DNA of 64,000 bases from Moniliella sp. 'wahieum' (taxonomy: Eukaryota), in the NCBI GenBank assembly GCA_003971905.1, contig RSEE01000002.1:558001-622000 (forward strand), in the 5' to 3' direction. The notes beneath the pieces were generated by a model. That model was given only the letters and a program-made list of their open reading frames with translations. It was not told the DNA's origin and made no database searches. Below, piece by piece: positions 6,054 to 57,300 of the stretch (position 1 is the first letter of the stretch; each line of letters opens with the position of its first letter). The position numbers and the translations under genes are program-made.

Positions 6054-8756
6054 GGGCACTCACGCCAGACAGAGGCGTGAGCGGAGGAGGACAATGTCAA
6101 TGGCGACGGCGATGATGACGACGTCGACGATGCAGATGATGGTCCATGACCTGCAGGGTAGTGGGGCAACCTTACGCAAGCCATCAGTGACGGGTGATGT
6201 GTGATGTGTGATGAGCGCTGAGCGTTGGCGACGTGGGACGGAGGCCTGGTCCGTGCACGCACCTATCCAGCTGGACTCATCCACGTTTCCTGTCTACCGC
6301 GAGCAGGCAGAAGGGCGGGGCGACGGGCTTCACCACCAATAATGAGGGCGATGCGATGGACCCAGCTAATGGTTCCAGCTATCGACAATAGAGATGGCAC
6401 TGGGGAAGCTACTACGGTGTTTAGGCCCGCTGGTCTTTTCCGAGAGGCCGGAGAAGAGGATTGGAAGGCGGATGGACGGGCGGATTGGGGGACACCGGCG
6501 CCGCCCACCACACGGCATAGAGGGTTAAGGCTCAGGATCGCTAGCGAAGGTCAGCTATCAGATCCAGAACTACTCCTGCAGCAAGTCCAGCGAGCTGCGC
6601 TGTCGTGTTGACGAAGGCGCTCTTGGTTCCTTCCTGCGCAGTGTCCTTCATCCAAGTTATGCCGCAAGAAGAACACAGAGACGTATCCGGTAGGGGAAGT
6701 TGAGGAAAGCTTGTCCCTCCTCAACCACTTTCGTACCGTCAAGCACATGCGTCACGCTGGTAGAGGATGCAAAAACTTCTGGGTAGTCTCTTTTTGTACA
6801 AGCCCACCTAGACAATCCACCGTCCCTCTTGGTGGGCACCACACCCCAGACGTCTGGCAAAGCAGGAAAAGCCAGCGCATCCCCAGATCTATCGGTGCCA
6901 AGTGGCAGCCGGCTTCAAGCTGGGATTCCAAACGGAGGAGACGCGCCCAGGGAATCCCACATCTCTTCTGCAAAGCGAACGCAACGTGTAATAGCTTCTC
7001 CCGATGGTGTTCGCCACTCTTCTGCCACAGGTACAGTCCATGTCGCATCCATTTCTCCCGCCCCTCAGTACTGAGACTCAGTAAACTGAGTACTCAATGG
7101 AGTCCGACTCCTAGTTACCTTCCGGAGTTCAGTTGTCGAGGGTACATCTCGTTGTGGGGGGTGACCCGATGACGAGGGCCGAGGCAGTGAGGACAGCAGG
7201 GCGGGTGAAGGCACAGCGGGTGCGGGGCGACGTTGGTGGAAGCAGAAGAACGAGGCAAGTGTTTGAGAAGGTGGTATGGCGAGGACGCCTGAAGTGGCAG
7301 GAGGCGCTCGGGGCTGGAGGATGGAGACGGCTGGCCCTGTGCCTGTCGGCTGTCACATGTCACATGCATCACATGTGATGGCATGTGTCGCATGGATGTC
7401 ACATGTCACATGTCACTCTCAAGCTCCAAGGTACTCACTTTGTATTGAGTACGGAGCGAGTAGCGAGTACGTATAGTAATGAGCTAGTGAGCACGAAGTA
7501 CCGAGCACACTGGGTGGCTAGAGAACTGGCGTGCTAGGCGCTGGGCGCAAGTGAGCTAGTGAAGCTAGTGAGAGTGACTCGTATTTTTAAGCGGTGGCCG
7601 GTGGCAAGGGACATGGTGTGGGATGGCTGCGGAGCACGTGCGCTTTGGTACTGGGACGCAGTACTCAGTGGTAGACGGATGGACAGCAGTCTGGATTTTC
7701 CCAGCTCCATTGCCCATCGGACGGGGCCAGACTGGGCCAGAACCCTAGGACTACTATGATATATGACGCCCGCTCCCATGGGGTCTGGTAGGATCTGCGG
7801 CAAGCGTCAAGCTTCACTACTTTCGCTCTGCTTTACTAGTTACTAGTTACTAGTTACTTCGCTTCGGGTCTGCTTCCGGTCTGGTCCGACCTGGGTCAGT
7901 ACTGAACCTCAGTCTGCTGTGCCCTGCGTTGCGGCATCGATGACTTGGCTAGTTCAGACCGATATGTGCCCTCTGATGCAGAGGTACACCCTTGTATACC
8001 CTTGTCTGCCCCCTTGTACTGCCTGTGCCAAGAGCGAGGTGTGTTGCCAGCAGTGCGCCAGTATGGCCGCTCCAAGCTCCATCCCCCTTTGTCCAGCCCC
8101 AGAAGCCAGAAGAGCCCCGGCGGCGGCGTGGGGAACGGGGGCGGAGGATGCTAGTTGCTAGATATATAGATGCTAGGTATTCTAAGAGTCGCTAGTTGCC
8201 GGCTGCCGGATACCATATGTACTCGCTTCCCCGAGTGCCCAGTCCCAGTGCCGTTGAGTACCTGACGCGTCACGCATCACGGTTCAGGCAGAGTACGTAG
8301 CGTAGGCTCTTCGGTACCTGGCCAGCGAGGCGTCGCTACACCGAGCACTCAGTACTCCGTTGGTACTCATACTCTTCAACGTACTCACCCGCCTCGCGGC
8401 CGCGTAGGCTCCATATAAGCTTCACACGCCCCCAGGCCCCCCCGTCCTGGAGCACTCGCCCGGCGCCATGGAGATAGCTTGCGATAGCTCGCCTACCTCG
8501 TGGGGGCCTGAGTGCAGCAATCGGATCGTGCCCAGTATGTATCAACCAACAGTAATACAGTAGCTGCCCTGACCACCAGGCCTCAGACCGGAGCCTCAGG
8601 CCGCAGGCCCGCCGCTCCATTCAACGTATCGCCGTTGCCGGCATCCGTCCTCTTGTCACGCTCGCCACCACCTTCTTGCCCCCCCCCCAACCTCACCGGT
8701 CATCTGGGCGCTCATCCCCACTTCCGCCTCTCCCCCCAATCCAATCCAAGACTTAC

Positions 8757-27140: not shown

Positions 27141-28997
27141 AGAGAGTTATCTATCGACTATCCATGCAGCTGGCATCCTTCGCAGCCCGCTCAATATGGG
27201 CGCATGGGTACTGTTATGCATTATGGGGCGCTCCGGTCATCGATCATCTCTCTCCGGACACCGAGCCCCACATGTCGTATAGAACCCTCATCGACGCACA
27301 CGCCATTCCCACGACTGTGAGTAAGAGCCAGCACGGACGACTTGCCACGGATGTTTTCCGCGGAGTGCCAGGAGAGGACCGGACTTAACGGTACGAAGCT
27401 TCGTATCCGCGGGGCATCCGGTCTTGATAGAACTCCACATCGACTGCGGCACACCGGCTCGCAGTCTGGACAGAACATGCCGCCCTTTGCCGTTTACTAC
27501 TGTAGATTCCCCTTCCTTCTGTTGACGCCTGTTGTGATGTTACGATATATAAGCAGTCCGGTCTGAGGCTTGCTGGCGGTGATCCTCACCGCCCAACCCC
27601 GTCAACCCCCGTCTCTATACTCCCGACTTCCCTCTTCACTCTTCACCCTTATACGCTTACGAATTTACGCCTTACGTCGAGCACTCTGCAAGTCGCGGTT
27701 ACTATCAGTAGCGCTTGCTCTTCTTTAGGACTCTATCTGTCCCCGCCAACTATAGCGTACCAACAAGTGTGGTAACGCCGCGAGGAACGGAGTAATTCCC
27801 GAGATCCTGGACCCTGCAATTGGTCTTACGACTTGCGAACACGGCTCCTACCTCGGAGGGTCTGAGCTGCGGCCTTTGCACGCAGGCAGCCACCCAAACT
27901 AGAGGGTCTCTCCCTTGCCTCTACACCCGCTCGGTTCAACCAGGATCTGAAGCAGGACCTAACGTACGTAACTCTAATGCCATGTCCAAGGGCTTTCACC
28001 CCTAAATGCCTGGGTCGAGCTCCGTCTCGGGGCTCGCCCCATGTGCATGACATTTGTAGGGTAAAAATCTTCCTCGTAATAGTGTGGGAGTTTTTGTAGG
28101 TGCGCGAATACCCTGCACTTAAGGGATCCCGCACTAGGACAGTCGGGGTGACACCGTAGGAGGAAAGCTTCCTGGTCACAGCCCCCTGCGAACCCTCTGC
28201 CGTACGGGTGTGGGGCGCAGCTGGAAACGCTCCTGTATTCGCTCTTCCTCGACTCGGTTCTCGCTTGCAGCCGTCGGCTGGGCCATTACACACAGGATTC
28301 ATCGATTCATCCTCCGCTCGCAGGTCACTAGGGTCACTGTCGCACTCTGGTCCGCATATATCCTCCCAACCCTGATTGCAGCCCGCGCGGCACAGTTCCA
28401 TACTACATAACCGCGCGCAGACATGAAGGCCATGTGCTCACTGCTCATTTCTGTGCCACTGGTTGTTCAGTGTTCAACCTTCAGTCCTCTTCGCCACCAC
28501 CTCTCCTCCCTCCTCCCCCCTTCTTCCCCTTCTTCTCGCTCACCTCGTTACTTGATTATTACTCGTTGATCGTCTGTGGTTTTGAGAATAAGTATCTCCA
28601 GGTCAGAACCTTCAAGCTTCACGCGTCGCGACACGGTATTCACTTTGAGGAAGGGTTCAAATCCACGTTGGTCGGAACCGATGCAACTGGGGAGTTATAT
28701 AGTCGATCAGGCTAACCCGTAGGTGGGGAGGCGTGAATTAATCGATAATAGTACTAGGTGAAGAGGGAACGACCGTACGTATGCTTGGGGTTTTCGCGCT
28801 CCTGCGGCTAGGCGTTGCATTCCCTTGGCGCAGCTGGGATGCGTTGCTGTCATTCGCCTCTATGCGCGAGCTCACACAAGAGCATGATATGAGCGGGACA
28901 GCGAAGAAAGGAGCACTTGATAACCTGCGAGTCGGAACGGTGTTGGGACAACGACCTCTGATAGTATAAATGCAAGCTCAACTCACAATCACTGTGA

Positions 28998-29095: not shown

Positions 29096-31837
29096 ATGTC
29101 GACTCCTCGTTCGAACGGGCTCAACGAAGCAGATGGGGAACGGACCGACCCACTGTCCAAAGACTCAGGCCTTCCGTCCACGCCGGATGCCATCGACTCT
29201 CTTCAGCCCTCACAAGTGATAGCATAGCCTCAACAAATCACGCGACGTACAAGAACACTACCCCGTTTTCGTTCAAAAACACAGTCGAGCACGACAACGA
29301 GAATGGGATGGAAACAGAGTCACTCTTGGAAAACACGCTCTATCACAACGACCGACTGCTGAATCCACATGATGAACCCTCTGCGACACGACCCGCGACA
29401 AACGAAACCGAGGATCGGGCCAGTGGGGTGAAGGCGCCAACAATGGATATGAAAACGACACAGACGAAGAGAAGGTTCTGGACTTGGCTGATGCGCGGGT
29501 GCGCGCAATTGTGCCTAACGAAGACGACCCAGATATGCCATGCAACACGATCCGCACCTGGCTGCTTTCCATGATCCTGGCCCTCGGCCTCACCACCGCC
29601 CTCATGGCTATGGAGATCCGAGGAGACTCGACCGAACCACAGACCTTTGTGTCTACAAGTGCGGTGTTGGTACAGCCATTCACCTACTGTTTGGGTTTCG
29701 CGCTATCGAAAATACCGTACCCATCGCATTGGCCCCTGGCTTGGTTCCTCAACCCGGGCCCATTTAACCTCAAGGAACATGCGTGCGTTCCAACTTCCGG
29801 GAAGTTGCGGTTGCTGTGAAAGAGATATCTGGCTGACACGTGTGATTCTTTCGCGCAAGATCTGCACCATCGTCGCTGCGATTGCCATGGGCCCCAACCT
29901 AACCTTGCAATCCTTGGCCGGAATGTCTCAATTGACGAATGGTCAATGGACGACGGATGGCACACAAAAAGAGACCAGATTCCCACCCGGCTTCCTCTTT
30001 CTCATTTACCTCTCGACCCCATTCTTGGATTTGCCTTGGCCGGTCTTGCCACGTCTTCTCATTTGGCCTGGTGAGTTGATTTATCCTCAGCAGCTTCAGA
30101 CCAGTGCAATGTTGACGGCCTTACACGGGGTTCGGCGTGGCAACTGGAACCGTCGTCTCGTCTTCTGGATTGTGGCGACGGTCATGTTCTTCTGGCACTG
30201 GATCCCGCTATTTTTCTATCAACCTATGGCAAGGTTCGAGTGGCCGACGTGGATGGCTCCGTCCAACTTTGTGGTCAATCTATTGTTTGATTCAAAGGGT
30301 GGCATGGGCTGGTCTTTTGGTCCCTGGACTGGACTACAGTGATCACAGCGTTGAATTCACCCTTGATCGTACCGTGGGGCGCGCTGGTCAACGTATTTTG
30401 TGGCTTCGCTGTTGCCATGTGGGTCATTGCCCTCCCGATCTTTTCACTAACAAGAACCTAGCGGCCTGCATTCCCTACGCGGTTATGAACGTGATTTGGT
30501 ACCCACGGCTGCATGCCACCGACATGCATATCAACCCCTTGCCCCAAGACATGAATCTAGATCTCTCCCAATTTGATTCGCCCGACCCACCCCAGGGCTA
30601 CTTTTCTGCCACACGTCATGTCCTGGGCGTTTTCCTATGCTGCCTGCACCGCCTTGCTCGTGCACACCGCTTTTCCTGGCGGCGACCTACGCCGCTGGTG
30701 GAAAGTGTCCAAGGTAGCTGATTCTCCTGATCCCCACGCCCGCCAACTCGCCCGCTACCCGGCTGTTCCCACCTGGTGGTACCTGTGTTTATTTCTGGTT
30801 GCCTTTCTTTGCCATCCCCATGGTGCACGTGTACCACACCTCGGTACCGGTTTGGGCGATTGTGCTTGCCCTCGCGCTGGCTGCAATCTTCATTGTTCCA
30901 GTGGGCATTGCATTGGTCGGACGTCGGTGGAGCTGAAGTGTGGAGCCCTTGGCGACGTTGATTGCTAGTGCTTCTCTGCCTGGGCACACGACCATCCCCG
31001 CTCTTTCAGATATGCTGCGGGGGAAGCATCACACAAGCGATGCTCTACTGTGGCTGCTCCAAACTGGCAGTCTACTTAAGATCCCACCACGAACCACCTT
31101 CTTTGTAATCGTGGGAACCCAATTGGCCTGCTCAGTGTTGCAAAGTGGAATCTGGGTGGGGTGGAGTGATGCGCTGCAAATCAGCATCATTACCAAAGCG
31201 CGGGTTGTAGGTTTGTACGATCCCATATATTGGACTGGCGTCGGGCTTCACAAGAACGGCTTCCTGCATCAATACCAGTGGACTTTGTACTTTTTCCTTA
31301 TTGGCGCAGTCGCGCCACTGCTCTTGTACCTTGTCGGACGCATGTCCCCTCGCTTGAATCACTTTGCTCACCTCCGCTCGCTCCATTGGCCGCTCTTCTT
31401 TGGTGGTGTATCGCAAGTCTCACTTTATTCACGATTTGCTGGACCGCTGGTTTTTGGGGGGCTGTCACTCACCTACTGTTCTCCCGTCGTCGGCAGTGAA
31501 TTATGGATTGCAGTACGTCCACTACTCTATCTTTCCTTTGTATTGTTCACGGGATGAATGTGGCTAACTCTCTTCTCTAACAAAATCTCTGGATCGGCTA
31601 TCGCCAGGATGAATTACGTTCTCTCTGCCGCCGCTTCTGTGGGAAGTTCGCTTGTTCAACCATCATCGCGGCCATGGAGTATAGTACGGATGACACTGAC
31701 ACCCGCTTTTCCCGCTTCGTCAACCACCTGAACAACCTTGGGCCCCAGAACGACTACGGCGATACCCTGGAAAAACTCTGGTCTGGAACGACACGCTTTT
31801 TCCCAACAGGAACGCGCCTCCCAACGCGGTCTAGTTG
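29096..31837 (+). CDS. Oligopeptide transporter (OPT family), divergent copy
   Basis: VRAIVPNEDDPDMPCNTIRTW, NPGPFNLKEH, LIWPGELIYPQ.L, DPHARQLARYPAVPTWWYL, KIPPRTTF and HWPLFFG. It has introns and several frameshifts, so both ends are approximate. Confidence 0.85.
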
Positions 31838-48483: not shown

Positions 48484-51127
48484 TCAGCTCGATCCCGACG
48501 AAGCAATTGGGTTGGGCAGCCACAGGCCATTGGGCGCCGGCGCAAAGCCATTGGGAGGAATATCCTTCATGGTGAGGATTCCGGAGCCCTGCAGGTTGTT
48601 GGTTCCACCTTGTTGCCCCACCACAAGTTTTCACCGTTGAAGGGATTGTCAACAGCGAGGAGGCGCGTGTTGGGTACCTCAAGAATAAGTGAGATGAGGA
48701 ACGACATGATCGCTGCACCGCAGTCAAAGCCGGCAGAGATAATATAGTTGTAGTCGGTCCAGAACTCGAAGTAGTGGTGACGGAGGAAGTACTGGAAGAA
48801 CCAGCCGACAAGGAACCAGGAAGTAAAGTTGATTCCAGTCGCAGGAGGCATCATACCCGTCGCAGAGAAGAAGACGGGCCAATTGATGAGACGGACCCAC
48901 GAGTTGGGGTACTTCTTGGCCAAGTACCACGTCGGCACAGGAATTACAGCGCCAACGATGAACATGATGTCAGAGCACCGTACGTCTGCCCTACAGCAAA
49001 CGTCCGGGCGGGTCCGATAAGGCCCCAAATAATACTCGCTTTAAACGAAATAGAGTCAGCATCAGAGTCTAGTCAGGTAAACAAGAAGAGGAGAAACGTA
49101 CCCGAGTAGAAAGTGTGTTGGTACTGGCACGTAAAATGCGCGGGGCTGATCTTTTCGTTGGGGTTGGCACCGCAGAGGTTGTGAGTGGAGCCAAAGAGGA
49201 AAGCAGTGACAGCAACTTGCACCAGGCAGGCCCAGATGGTGGAAATCATCTGGCCCCAGAACATGTCGCGAGGTGGGACCTTCATGTAATGACCCAACTT
49301 CAGATCCTGAACAAACGTAACAGCTTGGGCCATGGAAATGTAGCCAAATGTCTTGAAAATCATCATGGCCACCGGCTTGCCGGGATGGCGTACCCGACAA
49401 TCATTTCACTAATGACGTTGAGACCTGGTTCGTTGGCCGTCACAGCGACAATGATACCGATAGGAATCGTGTAGAGGGCACTCATAAGGATGGCAATGAT
49501 GAACATCCAAATAGGCAGCTGGGTCTTGTAAACGTAAATGGCAGGGATGGCCATCGCAAACGAGGCCAAGAAGGTAGCCAAGTACCACAGGTATGGCACC
49601 TCCTTGTAGCGCGACATGAGACGAGCGTGAATGTCAGGCTCTTCGTGCAGAGAGCGCTTAACTTGCTGGACAATCTGAGGGCCATAGTACAAGGCGACGT
49701 GACTCAGAGTCGATGTGATGGCCCCAAAACCAACACAGTAGCTAATGATGAACGTCTGGTGTTACACCTTGTCAGTGATAATTCGCTACGGAGGGAAAAA
49801 TTACATACGGCACTGAGGTACTCCTTCGAGTAACTGTCGTAGGCGGTTTGATCCAACACATAGTCGGGAGTAACCACATGGCTGACGGAGTAAGGCTGAC
49901 CGAAACGGTCGAAAATGCCGGAGTCAGAGAAGGTGAGGTAGCCCGTGTACTTGGTGTTCGTTGCCCACATGATGGGTGCCACGAAAGCAATGATGATTAG
50001 GTAGCCCACCATGGTGTTAGCAATAGCAAACCATGGCACAAAGATGGGGGATCCAAGGCCACTGATAACCTGCAGCCAATCGAGAGAGATCACGTTGAAG
50101 CCAATGCCACCAGAACCACCAAAGACGAGGTTGACGCCCTTGTTCTTGGGTGCAGCCCAAGCCGGCCATGAGAAGACCGATAGTCCAGTAAAGAGGTACG
50201 AGGGAACAATCTCCCACACAAACATGAACAATGCCGTGACGGAGAACATCTTGAAACGAGACCAACCACGGAAACTCCCGATCTTCTTGTTCTCATGCAT
50301 CGACGTAAGGAACGCCGTGTTGGTCAAGTTGGCAGGCCAAATCATGGACGCAGGCCACACCAAAACCTGACGGCAGAAGCCTGCATAGGAGAAGCCAATG
50401 AGTTGGGTCGAAAGCGTGAGGAGAATCATGTACCCAGCGGTAATGTGTTGACCGTAGTAAGCGTGCTGGGTAATGAAAATGTCGGTGGAGTATGCCGACC
50501 CCACTCCGACGGTGGCCATGACAGTAATCATGGTGTGCTCTTTAATTTGAACGGGCCAGGGTTGAACCAGTCAGCGAGTGGCCAGTTGCGCGGGTAAGGG
50601 ATCTTGGCCATGGCGACACCAATGGGATAAGCAAACAGTTGCACTGCAATGGACGGGAATGTAACCATAGGCCACTGTGGGAACGAGAGGTACAACCATT
50701 AGCAGTGCCCAGTGAGCAAATGCATGACACAATGAAGACGTACCTGGGCAGAGAAGTACATGTTGATACCACTAAGCACCGTGCAGGCAATCATGCCCAT
50801 GGACCATGAGCGGAACGTGTTGGCCTTCATGGTGGGGTCATCGATATTGCTGACGGCGGCACGAACTTCAGGGTAGATGGAATCGTCGCCGATTACATCC
50901 TCAAGACGCAGTTCGGCCTTCTGGTCCCCCTTGTGCAGCGCCTGGTCAGCCTCGTGCAGCAGGGCTGGGTCCAGGTTGGGATCGTTGATGCGGCCGCTGG
51001 TGATCTCATGACGGATGTCGTTCTCAATAGCACCAAAAGCAGCTTCGTGGTCTAGGACATAGGCGGGCTCTTGGACGTCAGGCGCAAGGTCCTTCGTCAC
51101 GTCCTCCTTCTCCAAAGGGCTAGCCAT
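48484..51127 (-). CDS. Oligopeptide transporter (OPT family, Isp4/Opt-like), multi-exon
   Basis: DSIYPEVRAAVSNIDDP..ANTFRSW, NPGPF..KEHTMITVMA, LVWPASMIWPANL, DIHARLMSRYKEVP, NEPGLNVISE, DLKLGHYMKVPPR and YNYIISAGFDCG. Confidence 0.93.
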
Positions 51128-51249
51128 GGTGGTGGCGGGGGGTAGGATGTGGGAAAGACAAGACAGGGAGAGAACGGTTTGTTAAAAGGAACGCAGGTTG
51201 GGGGCTCTACGTAAAAGCGCGCTGGGCTTTGTACCGGCCAGAACTAGTG

Positions 51250-54200
51250 CCTAGTGGCTCGTCACGCGTTAGTAACTCGATAATCGATCATTGATAATCG
51301 ATAACGGCGGTGGCGTGGAGGATAATCGAGAGATACTCAGTACTCAGTGCCAGACAGGCCCCATCCCTCGGGCCCAGCACGCACTGCGCCACTGTGTGTG
51401 CATCCAGCGTACGATGGCGGGGGCGTCACACGTCACATGTCACACCAGGAACAACACCAGGGTGGGGTGCCCGGGTGCCCGAGTGGCTGCTTGATGCATG
51501 ATTGTCGAGTACTTCGAGGAGCTCAAGTGACTCCATACCGGTGCTGCCGAGCCGCCGCCTGCCGCCGAGCCGCCGAACCGAGCACACTCAGATTCACGTC
51601 GAACGTACTTGATTGAGGCGTTGAAGGATCATCGGTCAGCGCTCAGCTCTCCGTTTCTCTCGGCTCGGCAAACCCCAGGCGGATCTGCCGGTGCTTCTCA
51701 AGCAGTGCTGCCACTAACGCGCTAACATGTAACACAAGAGGACGGCCAGATGATAGTTGGACCCTGCCAATGTGAAGACCACGTGGATTTGTACTTGGGG
51801 CCATCTCTCCTGGTCTTTGTCCCTCGACGGGCCTGGACCTGATCGAGCTTGAAGCTTGAAGCTTGATCGATGATCTCCCCAGCAGCCACTGGCCCTGCCT
51901 TTTGGCCTGTTTGGTCCGCTCCAAACTTCAAAAGCTCCAGCTTCACATGTTGCACCACGGGCCTTCCCCAGTGTTGAGTGAATTGAGTGTACTATCTTGT
52001 ACCTCCTTCCACAAACGTACTGAGTATTATCGGTATTCAACGTACTCAACGTTCAACACACCACATTAAGTACGTTCGGTACGTTGAACGTTGAACGTAC
52101 TTGTCAGCCGGTGTACCTGGATATCGCTAGCTCCTGGCTTGTGTGTCGATACGTTACGCGTATTAGCCAGCCATTCTTATCGACAAGTGATATTCCGATT
52201 ACCGATTATCTCGGTTTGATAGGAAAGAAAGAAAACGTTTAGACAAAAAGTACGTATACGCGACAATGGCGGCTGGCGCTATGCGAAGAGATGCGCTGAC
52301 TGATGCCAAGAACCATCACATGCATCACCATCAATTCGAACAGCTTTCGAAGTGCTATGGGTCAATGACCACGCATCATGCATCATGCATCATGCATCAT
52401 GGGGCTTTTCCCAGGCTTCCCCACAGGCTCCCCCACAGATATTGACACGAGCATCCCGGGCACCCCATAGTATCCAGAACAAAAAAGGAAGAAAATGGGT
52501 ATGCTATGTGCCGATACCCCGAGAACCGTTTTTTTGCCGTGGGGTAGTTCGATGGCATACGTCCTCACATGCCTCACAGTCATGAAGCTGTGCGGTATAA
52601 TTGAACAGGGAGAAGTCACCCAGCCTTAGGCCTTAGGCCTTACTGCTTGCATCTTAGAGCAGTGACTAGTGACTGGTGATGCATGATGGTTAGACGCTAG
52701 ACCTTCGACCTTAGGCCTTAGGGCCTTAGGCCTTAATGAAGCTTGAAGCTTGAAGCTTGAAGCTTGAAGCGCTTGAAGCTTGAAGAGAGCACGCACAGCA
52801 GCATAATCATTAATCACCAATCATTGATCATGATGCATGATGAATGAACGCGTGAACCGGCCCGAGGCTGAGCTCCTGAGGGCCTGAGGGCCTGAGCCCT
52901 GAGCCCTGAGCGCCTGAGCCCTCGCCGTTCCCGCACACCGTCAGGCCTCCAGCCCCTCACCCTCACCCGACCGCTGACCCACTGAGCTTATCGCTTATCT
53001 GCCGCATGCCAAGAGCTCAAGAACGTGCTCGCACTCTCAGTCTTTCAGACCTCAGCACTGGCACACTGACGACGCGCGCGCGGAGAGCCTCTAGAGGCTC
53101 AGGCTGAGCAGTACGACTAGTAGGACTAGTAGTAGGTCGATCGCAGGGTTATTCGGTTCTATCAACGCGCGCTCAGCCACTCCGCGCTGTTTGTCGCGCT
53201 CATGGAAATCGTTCAATTTGCAGCGCAAATATAGACAGAGATATAGACAGAGATAGCATCGATTACTTTCGTTACTCCAAGAGACTCCGACATCCTCGCT
53301 GCTACTCCCTACTGCTCGCTGCTACCACTCTGACTGACGGCAAGGATGCATGATGTGTGATGAGCATGTGAGACGAAGTCATCGATGCCTTTTCCCGTTC
53401 CCCGCTCTGTCATGCACATGCATGTCACATGTCACATGGCTGTAGGTGGCAGTCATCGAAGTCACTAGTCATCGATCACCACGTCGTAACAGGATCATCG
53501 ATCAGGCCTCTGAAGCTTGAAGCTTGAAGCTTGAAGCTCGATCTGAAGGGCCTACGCGCTTACGCGCCTACGGTCGATCTGTGGCAATGACAACATGTGA
53601 CCATGTGGCCCCTGAAACCCTGTCTCAGACCCTGAGGCGACACTATGCGGGGGAGACGAGGGACAGGCATATTGCACCCAGCCGAAAGAGCAGCAGCTTT
53701 TGTCCAAGTGTTGGGGCACCGTTGGGACCTGTTTATGGTTTTGCCCGACGGACTCGCATGCCAACTAACGCGGCCTCAGGCCTCAGGCCTGATTATTTCC
53801 CTGGGTTCCCCTAAGGCCTAAGGCCCAAGTGCCGGAGCCTCAAGCCTAAAAGAGGTCCTGAGGAATCATCGAATCACTAATATACTCGCAAGCCTCGTCA
53901 CGCGTCAGGGCAGCCTAATTACTCTATGGCTTTTTCCTGATTCCACACGTCCTCGCGTTCTCCCCATCACCTTATCGAGCGCTTGAAAAGCTCTTGAAGC
54001 TTAGCTTGAAGCTTGAGCTTGAGGAGATTGAAGCTTCAAGCTTCAAGCACACCCCTGAGCCTGAGGCCTGACGAAGGCGTAGGCACCGTGACGCGTGATG
54101 CGAGCATTATGGTGCATGAGATCGTGAGAGAGAAAACCAAATTAATCTCTCCTCCCCCTCTCTCTCTTTCCTCCGAAGACCGGTTCCATCCGTCATTTTA

Positions 54201-54380
54201 CCAAATCTCTGTCGAGACTGAGGACTGAGTTCATCAGTGTTCGGTACTGAGGGGCGCGAGGCTCAGCTCAGGCCTGAGGTACCGAACGGTCCTGAAGCAC
54301 CGGGACATCAGGATTCAATTGAATATTCATGTGAGCCGCTGAGGAAGGACAGTTGCATGATGCATTATGACGCGTGATGC
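51250..54380. repeat. Dense cluster of 7-bp-period palindromic micro-arrays (A-NNNN-T + 1 nt)
   Basis: (AAGCTTG)4 at 52739-52765, (ATGCATC)3 at 52378-52397, AGGCCT-T/C arrays at ~52628, ~52713 and ~53772, AACGTT-G at ~52080, ACATGT-C at ~53420, and mixed ACTAGT-C-ATCGAT at 53464-53476. Confidence 0.85.
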
Positions 54381-57300
54381 GGAACCATATGCACAGATGA
54401 CCTGGGCGCGCGTTACACGCTTGGCAGGCACGCTGTTGAGAATTGATATGTATAGTCTTCCCCCAATCAGCCTGTTTACGTGTTACAAGAAAGCGTGGTA
54501 GCTCCAAACTTTTCCATCCGTTCTTAAAGAGAGAAAGTTTGGACTACGAGAGGCAAACACGCGTGGTGCAACTTTTTTGCGAACGAATACCCCACAATAT
54601 GCCTCCTTTTTGTAAAAAAGAGAAACAAGGCCTACAGAGAGAGAGAGAGAGAGAGGAGGAGGGGGTGATGGATCTAGATTGATCTATTCACAGAGAGGAG
54701 CCCGTTAGGGACAGAACATAGAGGAGAGTCGGATACATAGAGAACAGTGCCATGTGTGATGTGTGATCGGCTGCGTGTTGCATGCCTTCGTTCCCGAGTC
54801 GCTACTGGAGTGTATGGTCCCCCTCCACTCCGCCGCTACAGGAGTAATAGCCCCTCCCTCGCACATTTGCACCCTGCCCGCCGTGTGCTCCATTACATAT
54901 TCCCCCGTGGTACTCTTGATTAATGATTCGTACGCATCCGATGTTCACGTTCATGGCTGTGTTCACGGACTGTAAGAGAGGACTGGGGTGGGAGACGACA
55001 CGACCACGCCTTTTCTCGTTCTGTGACGGGAGTTGTGATATTTAGTCTGACCTTGGCGCCTTCGTCTATACTGTACCTTTTTGGCTTCCACTAATATTTG
55101 GCCGCTTCCGAGGCGGAGAAGTGACTGTCGTTAGGGAGAAGGTGCCTGATTCGCCTACTTCTTGTTGGTTGAGCTGTGTGGGTGCCATCTTGTCGTTACT
55201 CCCCCGAAACACCCTTGATTTCTGTACGACTCGGCTGTGTGACCTTATATCTCTACTCGCATTCTCGTACTATTCTTCAAGTCAAGCTATATTGGCCGTC
55301 ACCGTCATATGAACAACCTCATATCGCATCGCGAGAGGTCCAAGGCCTTGGGATTGAGAAGCCGACTTTGGTGCACACCATCACTACTAAAGTATCGATT
55401 ATCGGCTATCGGAATGTGCCTCGTGGAGTGTCCTGAGAAGGCTGGACTTTGATTGGACACTTTTAGGGGAGAGGCTAGTACGTGGCCCACAACGGTGGTA
55501 TTTGTCCCTCGCCAAACAGTTGCACTGGTAACGCGGTAACGAGAGAGGAGGGAACTGCTCGCGGAGTTGCAGAGTTCAATCTGAATTTACCTTTGTAAGT
55601 ATATATGTCAGTGAGCTCAAAGTTAGCGATAGAGATGGCAGATAATCACGATAAGCATATGTACCTCACTGAACGCAGCCGTGCTCAAAGTGTTTTTGTG
55701 TTCGTTGCACTTCTTGACTTGAGTTCAAGTTTTGGAGGATAGTTCAAAGTTCGTACCAGCACTCTCTCCATGTTCATTTACCTCTTCAACGTACTGGTTT
55801 ACACTTCCAACCTCACAAGCGCTGTGGATAGGGACCCTGGGGATCCACACGAAAGTGGGTAGGATGATATATACCCCTTATTCGTTTCAACATAGGAGAG
55901 GCCGTGGAGGGAACTTGACGTGCCTTAGTACTTGTGGGAGTGTAAGTGGACAGTTACATCCTCCTAGGAGAAAGAGGGATTGATCAACAACGCTTGTTAA
56001 CCGAATCGCTCACTTTCCACGAGTCTCCGCTTCACGGCGCGGATTCAGTAGCAGAACCTCTCAAACAGAGAGGAAGGCGCACAGCATTTCCGATTACACC
56101 GTATATGTCTCCCCTTCAAACGGAATGGAACGTAGCAGAGGGGAGAGTATCTATGACGGTGCTGCACACAAAAGGAGATTCACACACCTCTTATTGTCTT
56201 ATCACAACTTTCCTGTTTATCGTCCAATTTCTGTTTATCGTCCAATTGCTATATTTGCTCGGCTTCAACTACTATGCGTTCATCGCACAATCTCTCTTCT
56301 CAGATCTCAACGTCCATCTCGCTTATCTTCCCCGACCTTATTTTCGCTCTATTCACTCTTTCGCCTCAGTCCTCCGGCTTCAAGCTTCATCTCTATACTG
56401 CATCCATATCATTGACAGAGCGTAAGGCTGCTGGGACAGGGAAACGCTACGCCTAAACCGAACCGTTCATCTTGCGTGAGTTATTTGGTAGCGCCACCAG
56501 TGTTAAGGAACCGGGGGATTACCAGGACATCAGGAACCCCTGGTGCTCGCTATTCGGTGCCGTACCCTATAGGTAGCGCGTGTGGACACGGATGAACGTG
56601 GTAGACATCTGAGCAAGGAACCATTTCCGTTGAGAGTCAGTAGAGCCGCATCTTGCCCGCTGTCTTGGTGCCGTAGTATTCTCGCGTAGTCAAACCAGGG
56701 GGGAAAACGGCTCTTGAGTGCGTCCCTGGTACTTGGCGTTCTTGTCGCATTCTGCTTGTTCCAGCAGCTGAAGGAGCTCCTTCTCCCGGCGTTCCAGGGG
56801 GTCGCGGTGCTCTCATGCACCACCCTCCGGTACGCACTCTGCATCTCCTGCGATCTCATGTCGCGCAACGCATGGTTCACCTCCATTCCTGATCCTCCGA
56901 TTGATCCAGGCTCCATCGCGTGGTAGTTAGTACGCATTGCCTTCCTCCCGCACCTCATCCCATCATCGTTCTCCACAGTGAGCTCGTTGTGGATGTGTGT
57001 GTCGGGATTGACCGCACGAGCAGGAGAATGGGCTCCCGTACTGCCTCATTCTATGCACCAAACTTGGACTGGGTGCAGGTGCAGGCCATGATGCACTTAA
57101 GCGAGGGCATGACGCCACACTTGCACATACTGTGCACATGGCGCAGCACAGCGTGCGGAGTTGGAGACCAATCTGAACCCGCATGTCAGAGAGTCGGAGG
57201 CACGGGCGGATGGAATGGAGGAGAGCCACAATTGTGGCTCAGCGAGTTGCTACGCTCGACCACACGTTGCGACTATCGGCATCGTCAGGCTTCTGAAGCA

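Follow-up and report, generated by a model that had tools for sequence, protein, structure and literature searches.

At positions 53464-53509 of the window (the whole 64,000 nt stretch analysed here, positions 558001-622000 of contig C2 in an assembly of 69.5 Mb and 223 contigs), different palindromic hexamers are chained in a 7-bp phase, in the intergenic region that precedes an OPT gene. This raises the question of how neighbouring units can differ in sequence and still share symmetry and spacing. The genes of the window have Pfam matches to a fungal Zn cluster, an OPT transporter, a carboxypeptidase and topoisomerase II, and a search with a window protein gave Tilletiaria anomala as the best named match (64%). 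Judged by these protein matches, the host genome belongs to the smut-related basidiomycetes. Two OPT transporter genes were recognised by Pfam matches at 29647-30342 and 48567-51127, and members of the OPT family are numerous throughout the assembly. The intergenic hot zone that holds the chained palindromes (51128-55900, no strand assigned) is located upstream of the minus-strand OPT oligopeptide transporter gene. A member of a dispersed repeat family with relatives on many contigs lies at 54614-54778; by eye it resembles the terminal part of a polymorphic insert of 273 bp in locus L018.

The initial annotation listed five strings of such mixed pairs, all of which are present where it had placed them. 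It argued that mixed pairs cannot come from slippage, which copies identical units, and proposed selection on symmetry and spacing or a symmetry-restoring mechanism. Palindromic hexamers as such are not enriched in the window (1015 versus 1000 under uniform expectation). At a start offset of 7, i.e., with a single spacer base, the window holds 25 identical pairs, all of them of the A..T type, and seven mixed A..T pairs, while each of the other offsets from 2 to 30 holds 0-6 mixed A..T pairs (6 at offset 14). The seven pairs represent a modest excess over the 2.5 obtained by permutation (p = 0.014). For 264 kb of C2 we counted 21 mixed A..T pairs at spacer 1 versus 7.0 when positions were shuffled inside 500-bp bins, and none of 2000 permutations reached 21. 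The numbers for spacers 0, 1, 2 and 3 were 3, 21, 3 and 10 in C2, 1, 10, 0 and 2 in contig C37, and 1, 14, 1 and 2 in contig C92. Mixed pairs that are not both of the A..T type formed no spacer-1 peak in C2 (67 versus 45-80). In a genome-wide search covering spacers 1-7, one mixed pair type was found 95 times at spacer 1 and 98 times in total over spacers 2-7 (16 per spacer); one identical pair type was found 3208 times. Mixed A..T pairs are clearly more frequent at spacer 1 than at spacers 0, 2 and 3 or after permutation, contrary to the condition named in the initial annotation as refuting its proposal; roughly between one fifth and one third of the raw mixed pairs are expected from chance.

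In order to understand these pairs, the single unit has to be considered. It consists of a T-N-A triad and a 4-base palindrome that is mirrored from a flank. A site uv-TNA-ab gains seven bases: in the left type these are TNA and rc(uv)+uv, in the right type TNA and ab+rc(ab). Both types are equally common, with 286 left and 278 right units in 664 kb of C2, C37 and C92. In the same 664 kb the 4-base filler between two identical T-N-A triads was palindromic in 528/1043 cases versus 65 expected. No strong enrichment was seen there for T-N-A fillers of 2, 3 and 6 bases (palindromic ratios of 1.0, 0.95 and 1.5), and none for 4-base fillers between AnT, CnG or GnC triads (0.6-0.7). The match at period 7, measured where the opposite side breaks the period at once, is about 0.8 for exactly two flank bases and about 0.35-0.4 from the third base on; non-palindromic fillers have no such step at the third flank base. 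Our data demonstrate that the filler follows its flank over two bases and not further. All 16 palindromic cores are used, at 0.4-1.7 times the flank background. Local density is high, and up to a third of the T-N-A triads are filled in a 2-kb intergenic bin. In positions 52001-54000 of the window, units obeying the rule hold 47 of the 150 triads, and in most coding bins they hold none. We also considered whether the target preference extends further out (A at −5, T at +7) and rejected this: the frequencies of T at −7 and of A at +9 are raised as well, and the signal is due to neighbouring in-phase triads.

If one triad receives a left and a right filler, the left core should mirror the left flank, the right core the right flank, chains should have the order X..XY..Y, and the two cores should differ like random draws. 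For the mixed pairs of C2 the left core fits the left flank in 13/18 and the right core the right flank in 8/12 cases, compared with 1/18 and 0/12 for swapped controls. Smaller samples gave 5/5 (left) and 2/5 (right) in C37, and 3/5 (left) and 6/9 (right) in C92. In strict chains, counted in 564 kb with one copy of each homeolog pair, 13/16 left and 10/16 right cores fit, against 1 and 0 after swapping. Several mixed pairs fit neither flank. All nine mixed chains of three or more units have the order X..XY..Y, and none reads X-Y-X or X-Y-Z. Genome-wide, X-Y-X occurs at six loci; Y is palindromic in two of these, and both are perfect 20-base palindromes. X-X-Y has 174 genome-wide matches, and among the first 100 listed Y was palindromic, by eye, in about 69. 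The mixed fraction for chains of 2, 3 and 4 units was 11/39, 4/13 and 1/2, as compared to 0.23, 0.35 and 0.43 in a repeat-visit model. The cores of mixed pairs differ at two positions in 22/45 and at four positions in 23/45 cases (40:60 for random draws), and lack the excess of two-position differences that stepwise compensation would give. The range of 2-4 differences stated in the initial annotation is indeed seen but carries no weight, since palindromic 4-mers can differ only at two or four positions. All this strongly supports the view that a mixed pair results from two flank-templated insertions at one site, one left and one right, and we hold this with high confidence.

Collinear contig pairs of about 85-94% identity (C37/C92 and C53/C29) served as natural allele pairs. 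Including C19/C14 and C17/C62, four contig pairs have 85-94% mutual identity and 70-80% identity to C2. Three sets of genes seem to be present, as would be expected for a hybrid, polyploid or mixed assembly, and the heptamer rule operates in each of them. For the window itself, a similarity search of the assembly returned no close homeolog (best matches 76-80%). Homeolog indels were scored in 170 kb plus 101 kb of alignment (271 kb), allowing at most two mismatches in 20 flanking columns and excluding a 21-bp indel that represents an expansion at a symmetric site. Non-tandem insertions following the flank rule account for 13/44 (170 kb) and 8/31 (101 kb), i.e., 21/75 of the 7-bp indels; 17/75 are plain tandem duplications and 37/75 are other. 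Analogous insertions of 5, 9 and 11 bp were not found (0/33, 0/22 and 0/14 indels). A whole mixed pair (CGCG + AGCT, 14 bases) is missing in the other homeolog, which reads exactly the predicted empty site CG-TGA-AG, and for three further mixed pairs one member is missing. Units are hence present in one homeolog and absent from the other; as a comparison of two alleles, this could also reflect deletion between 5-bp repeats, and we infer insertion, not deletion, as the polarity.

These indels bear directly on slippage. The 17 tandem duplications indicate that slippage also acts in this genome, and long identical arrays exist. The rule insertions, however, hold two bases that have no direct copy in the other allele, so that 21/75 of the 7-bp indels back the argument that copying of identical units does not make mixed pairs. 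Slippage as the sole cause is refuted, and together with the enrichment at spacer 1 this leaves next to no probability for slippage followed by point mutation, or for chance.

The homeologs also allowed us to compare the fate of cores and flanks. Cores differ at 31/564 positions (5.5%) and flanks at 162/3741 (4.3%), with gapped sites (125/266) left out, so the cores are not conserved. Of 28 changed cores 25 were broken by a single change, and all three cores with a double change kept their palindrome. Opposite a motif, the homeolog has a gap of 5-7 columns in 57/355 cases, compared with 10/625 for nearby 10-mers. The homeologs hold three palindrome-to-palindrome differences, one of which reads as independent insertions at neighbouring triads; the other two are CpG-type transitions, are not explained by insertion and, by their sequence, may be real symmetric swaps. 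These double changes, and the location of the motifs, which occur only in non-coding DNA and cluster upstream of a gene, would fit sites of general regulatory factors that are selected for symmetry and spacing and whose cores are swapped by slippage or compensation. We consider such selection very improbable. Cores follow their flanks instead of a code and use all 16 sequences, X-Y-X is nearly absent, cores diverge as fast as flanks and are mostly broken when changed, gaps are frequent, and the intergenic DNA of the window does not align to its 76-80% contigs; ahead of the closest OPT homologs, nothing could be aligned to the region of the chained palindromes. The absence of the motifs from exons is explained by purging of frameshifts. 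Selection on symmetry and spacing is therefore without support. The proposal of a symmetry-restoring mechanism comes close but needs rewording; the symmetry arises at insertion, when two flank bases are copied inverted, and not by restoration after mutation.

Directly before the first mixed pair, at 53451-53459, lies a complete copy of its 7-bp site with two mirrored (P) bases, and this led us to test for a duplication plus P-base class. This count was made in 894 kb, including both copies of each homeolog pair. In intact 7-bp duplications centred on T-N-A, a single intervening base was mirrored in 76/96 cases (+8 class; controls 12/38, 27/81 and 34/73), and two intervening bases were mirrored in 64/89 (+9 class; controls 5/19, 4/102 and 6/134). 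Maximal duplicated words of seven bases had P bases in 23/33 cases when centred on T-N-A versus 11/134 without T-N-A, and among maximal words of nine bases there was none (0/1). Four of the 27 homeolog indels of 9 bp are of the T-N-A duplication plus P-base kind, and none is for control triads. The +8 and +9 classes exist as distinct products. Plain 7-bp duplications at asymmetric T-N-A sites showed no clear enrichment (80 versus 84-114 for control triads). Among duplications of six bases, one mirrored base was present in 101/186 cases with T-N-A and in 103/285 without it, which suggests further trimmed scar classes. The combination of a fixed duplication, P bases and forms trimmed at microhomology is the pattern of excision with flank hairpins (PMC5873905).

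These classes also bear on a switch of template during replication, in which a nascent T-N-A end would pair anew with the opposite strand, be extended by two inverted bases and return 5 bases upstream. Short-range switches do yield short inverted copies of neighbouring bases, as described in the accessible text of PMC9435742, T-N-A is pseudo-symmetric, and the left and right forms are equally frequent. In the same source, as far as accessible, such mutations vary in length (mean 11.56 bp) and have no fixed anchor, whereas here there is one length and one anchor, and only the 2-base arm is enriched. AnT, CnG and GnC triads show nothing, and template switching does not predict the +8 and +9 classes, in which a centred 7-bp duplication is intact. 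We regard it as improbable.

Returning to the locus with these rules, a +9 scar can be recognised on the plus strand at 53451-53464, with an AG-TCA-TC copy at 53451-53457, the mirrored GA at 53458-53459 and the start of the second copy; we suggest that it may be read as one event. The first mixed pair (53460-53480, plus strand) is located at this very site and reads AG, TCA, CTAG (left), TCA, TCGA (right), TCA, CC. Its right flank is CC where TC is expected, and TC is retained in the upstream copy of the site. In the second mixed pair (53493-53511, plus strand; GA, TCA, TCGA (left), TCA, GGCC, TCT) the left side obeys the flank rule, the third triad is TCT and the right flank is mismatched. 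Its GGCC palindrome may be decayed filler or chance. The second pair is followed by a homologous array of four TGA + AGCT copies (53511-53538, plus strand) of the right type with flank AG.

The other sites, all on the plus strand, are similar. An X-X-Y chain at 51848-51875 has the flank CT, two AGCT, one TCGA and the flank TC, and both flanks match. The AGCT + ACGT pair with TCA triads at 25782-25802 matches its left flank and one of two bases on the right, and the AGCT + CGCG pair at 28610-28630 matches both flanks, with one mismatch in the third triad. The scan at offset 7 revealed a further mixed A..T pair at 7364-7376, absent from the initial annotation, whose flanks break the rule and which lies inside a longer palindrome. 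Two full 7-bp duplications at 28297-28338 (triads at 28299 and 28325) have one and two mirrored bases between their copies.

What kind of process could strike the same T-N-A site repeatedly with fixed geometry and leave such pairs as by-products? We favour the view that the mixed pairs are scars of the excision of a cut-and-paste DNA transposon, which we hold to be probable. Insertion of the transposon would duplicate its 7-bp target uv-TNA-ab, and excision would leave hairpins on both flanks, the opening of which adds mirrored bases. Even P-base palindromes copied from the outermost bases of the flank, as seen here, are also formed at RAG coding ends. End joining that keeps both target copies and one or two P bases would result in the +8 and +9 scars. 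Most often, the ends would be joined via the pseudo-symmetry of T-N-A, giving a +7 scar with a filler mirrored from the right or the left flank. When one triad is visited again, the other filler type would be added in about one of four cases, leading to X-Y, and later visits would lead to X-X-Y or X-Y-Y, never to X-Y-X. For the hairpin intermediates, the transposon as the agent and the cause of the frequent strikes on some intergenic zones, we infer from the products. Rice excisions are mostly untidy, with 8/94 clean in the accessible part of PMC4423477, so the regularity found here is unusual. The scars of this genome are far denser and more uniform than those of rice, which counts against the transposon reading.

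We searched for the element itself. No element with a 7-bp duplication centred on T-N-A was found in the roughly 0.9 Mb examined of the 69.5 Mb. Large insertions between homeologs (271 kb) were LTR, SINE-like and non-LTR elements only. Scans for terminal inverted repeats (TIRs) plus duplications in two Transposase_21 loci and in 664 kb of C2, C37 and C92 gave matches at chance level, and the ends of dispersed repeats in the sampled DNA of this genome belonged to solo LTRs and a non-LTR element, without a 7-bp duplication centred on T-N-A. Copies of a 5′-truncated non-LTR retrotransposon (L018:4061-5679, L015:1-2215, L006:6720-7065 and L009:8543-8877) have a common 3′ end and differ in presence between homeologs; one copy has a duplication of nine bases. 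A 147-bp insertion (L005:8766-8912), which contains a tRNA-like segment and has a duplication of four bases, is missing in the homeolog and appears SINE-like by eye. The first Transposase_21-like gene is single-copy (L064:3259-6872 on contig C34, minus strand; frames of 446, 251 and 543 aa) and its locus has no clear inverted ends or duplication; from its sequence it is possibly a domesticated transposase. The second locus is common to both homeologs (L063:4181-7237 on C17 and C62:280654-285052, 92%), likewise with no clear ends or duplication. A 440-bp high-copy repeat is located inside the C17 copy only. A family search for KDZ transposases in this genome gave 0 matches, which, as the search had no positive control, does not show absence.

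The same scars could be left without a mobile element, if a transposase-like nuclease, domesticated or free, cut T-N-A with a 7-nt stagger in open intergenic DNA, and fill-in, fold-back and end joining repaired the break. No element came out of the indel, TIR and dispersed-repeat scans, the two transposase-like genes have no recognisable ends, and the local density of motifs is very high, all of which would suit such an enzyme. The 7-bp duplication with P bases, however, takes two steps, which are natural for insertion and excision, and the plain duplications at asymmetric sites stay at the level of the control triads. We consider the nuclease unlikely, and prefer the excision of a transposon.

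Matches to the pattern are also found outside this genome. The fully flank-matched mixed pattern, scanned alone, was present in nine metagenome stretches (L087-L095), eight of them independent. In all eight the three triads share a single spacer base (chance 1 in 4 each), and two of them are prolonged to X-X-Y and X-X-X-Y. Prokaryote genomes gave two matches to the flank-matched pattern, one with mixed spacers. A KDZ transposase frame (L095:2805-3716) lies about 1.5 kb from one of the metagenome mixed pairs, which may be coincidence. In its most far-reaching form, a nuclease that forms hairpins and cuts T-N-A with a 7-nt stagger, possibly free of any element, would be a standing mutator that writes palindromic microsatellites in open promoter DNA, also in unrelated fungi; we offer this as a speculation that is rather unlikely to hold. 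What appeared to be a regulatory code becomes a record of mutation, in which the filler shows the source flank, the site before insertion and the number of visits. This would be a route to new microsatellites that starts without slippage and, considering the density, a major source of promoter variation in this lineage. An undescribed enzyme geometry is predicted, a 7-bp target centred on T-N-A with even P bases, for which searches can be made. There is also a warning here, as an enrichment of intergenic palindromes in fungi does not by itself indicate binding sites.

No description of this system was found in the literature searched, which covered few subscription papers. The present work covers the test of mixed pairs, the empty alleles, the +8 and +9 classes, and the matches outside this genome. 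An intergenic motif is also known from Ustilago maydis. The (A)n-(T)n microsatellites of Fusarium mitochondria are likewise optional palindromic intergenic repeats in a fungus, but differ by mononucleotide arms, mitochondrial location, 14-16 copies and, in the available part of PMC7218506, by the lack of a flank rule. CMCT/EnSpm elements, in which a Transposase_21 gene lies between CA..TG inverted ends, share Transposase_21 genes with this genome (two loci), but have duplications of 2-5 bp in the text accessible of PMC12730594 versus the 7 bp deduced here. In Cryptococcus, as far as the accessible parts of the sources report, duplications of KDZ elements have 8 or 4-8 bp, those of EnSpm-like elements 2-3 bp (10.1101/2024.08.15.608186, PMC12810828), and those of CNIRT6 and CNEST 3 bp and 2 bp (PMC12810828). 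Fungal target duplications of 7 bp are reported for Kyakuja, a KDZ element without TIRs, and for hAT7 in the available part of PMC12730594; both have basidiomycete hosts and resemble the deduced element, as compared by duplication length. Without TIRs, Kyakuja would escape TIR scans; the KDZ search of this genome, made without a positive control, gave no match. Excision of Pack-CACTA leaves varied footprints, according to the accessible part of PMC6379663. A close parallel in products is Ac/Ds, a hAT element studied in Candida albicans, yeast and plants, whose excision footprints in fungi contain P bases and microhomology. Duplication remnants, P bases from flank hairpins, joining at microhomology and few dominant footprints are common to both, as far as PMC5873905 is accessible. 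The Ac/Ds palindromes described there are odd, centred on the complement of the base beside the element, whereas those found here are even, and the odd class is not enriched (12 and 11 fillers versus about 10 expected, for the microhomology-joined form only). Compared to Ac/Ds, the system described here has a 7-bp target centred on T-N-A, and its scars are iterated into chains throughout the genome.
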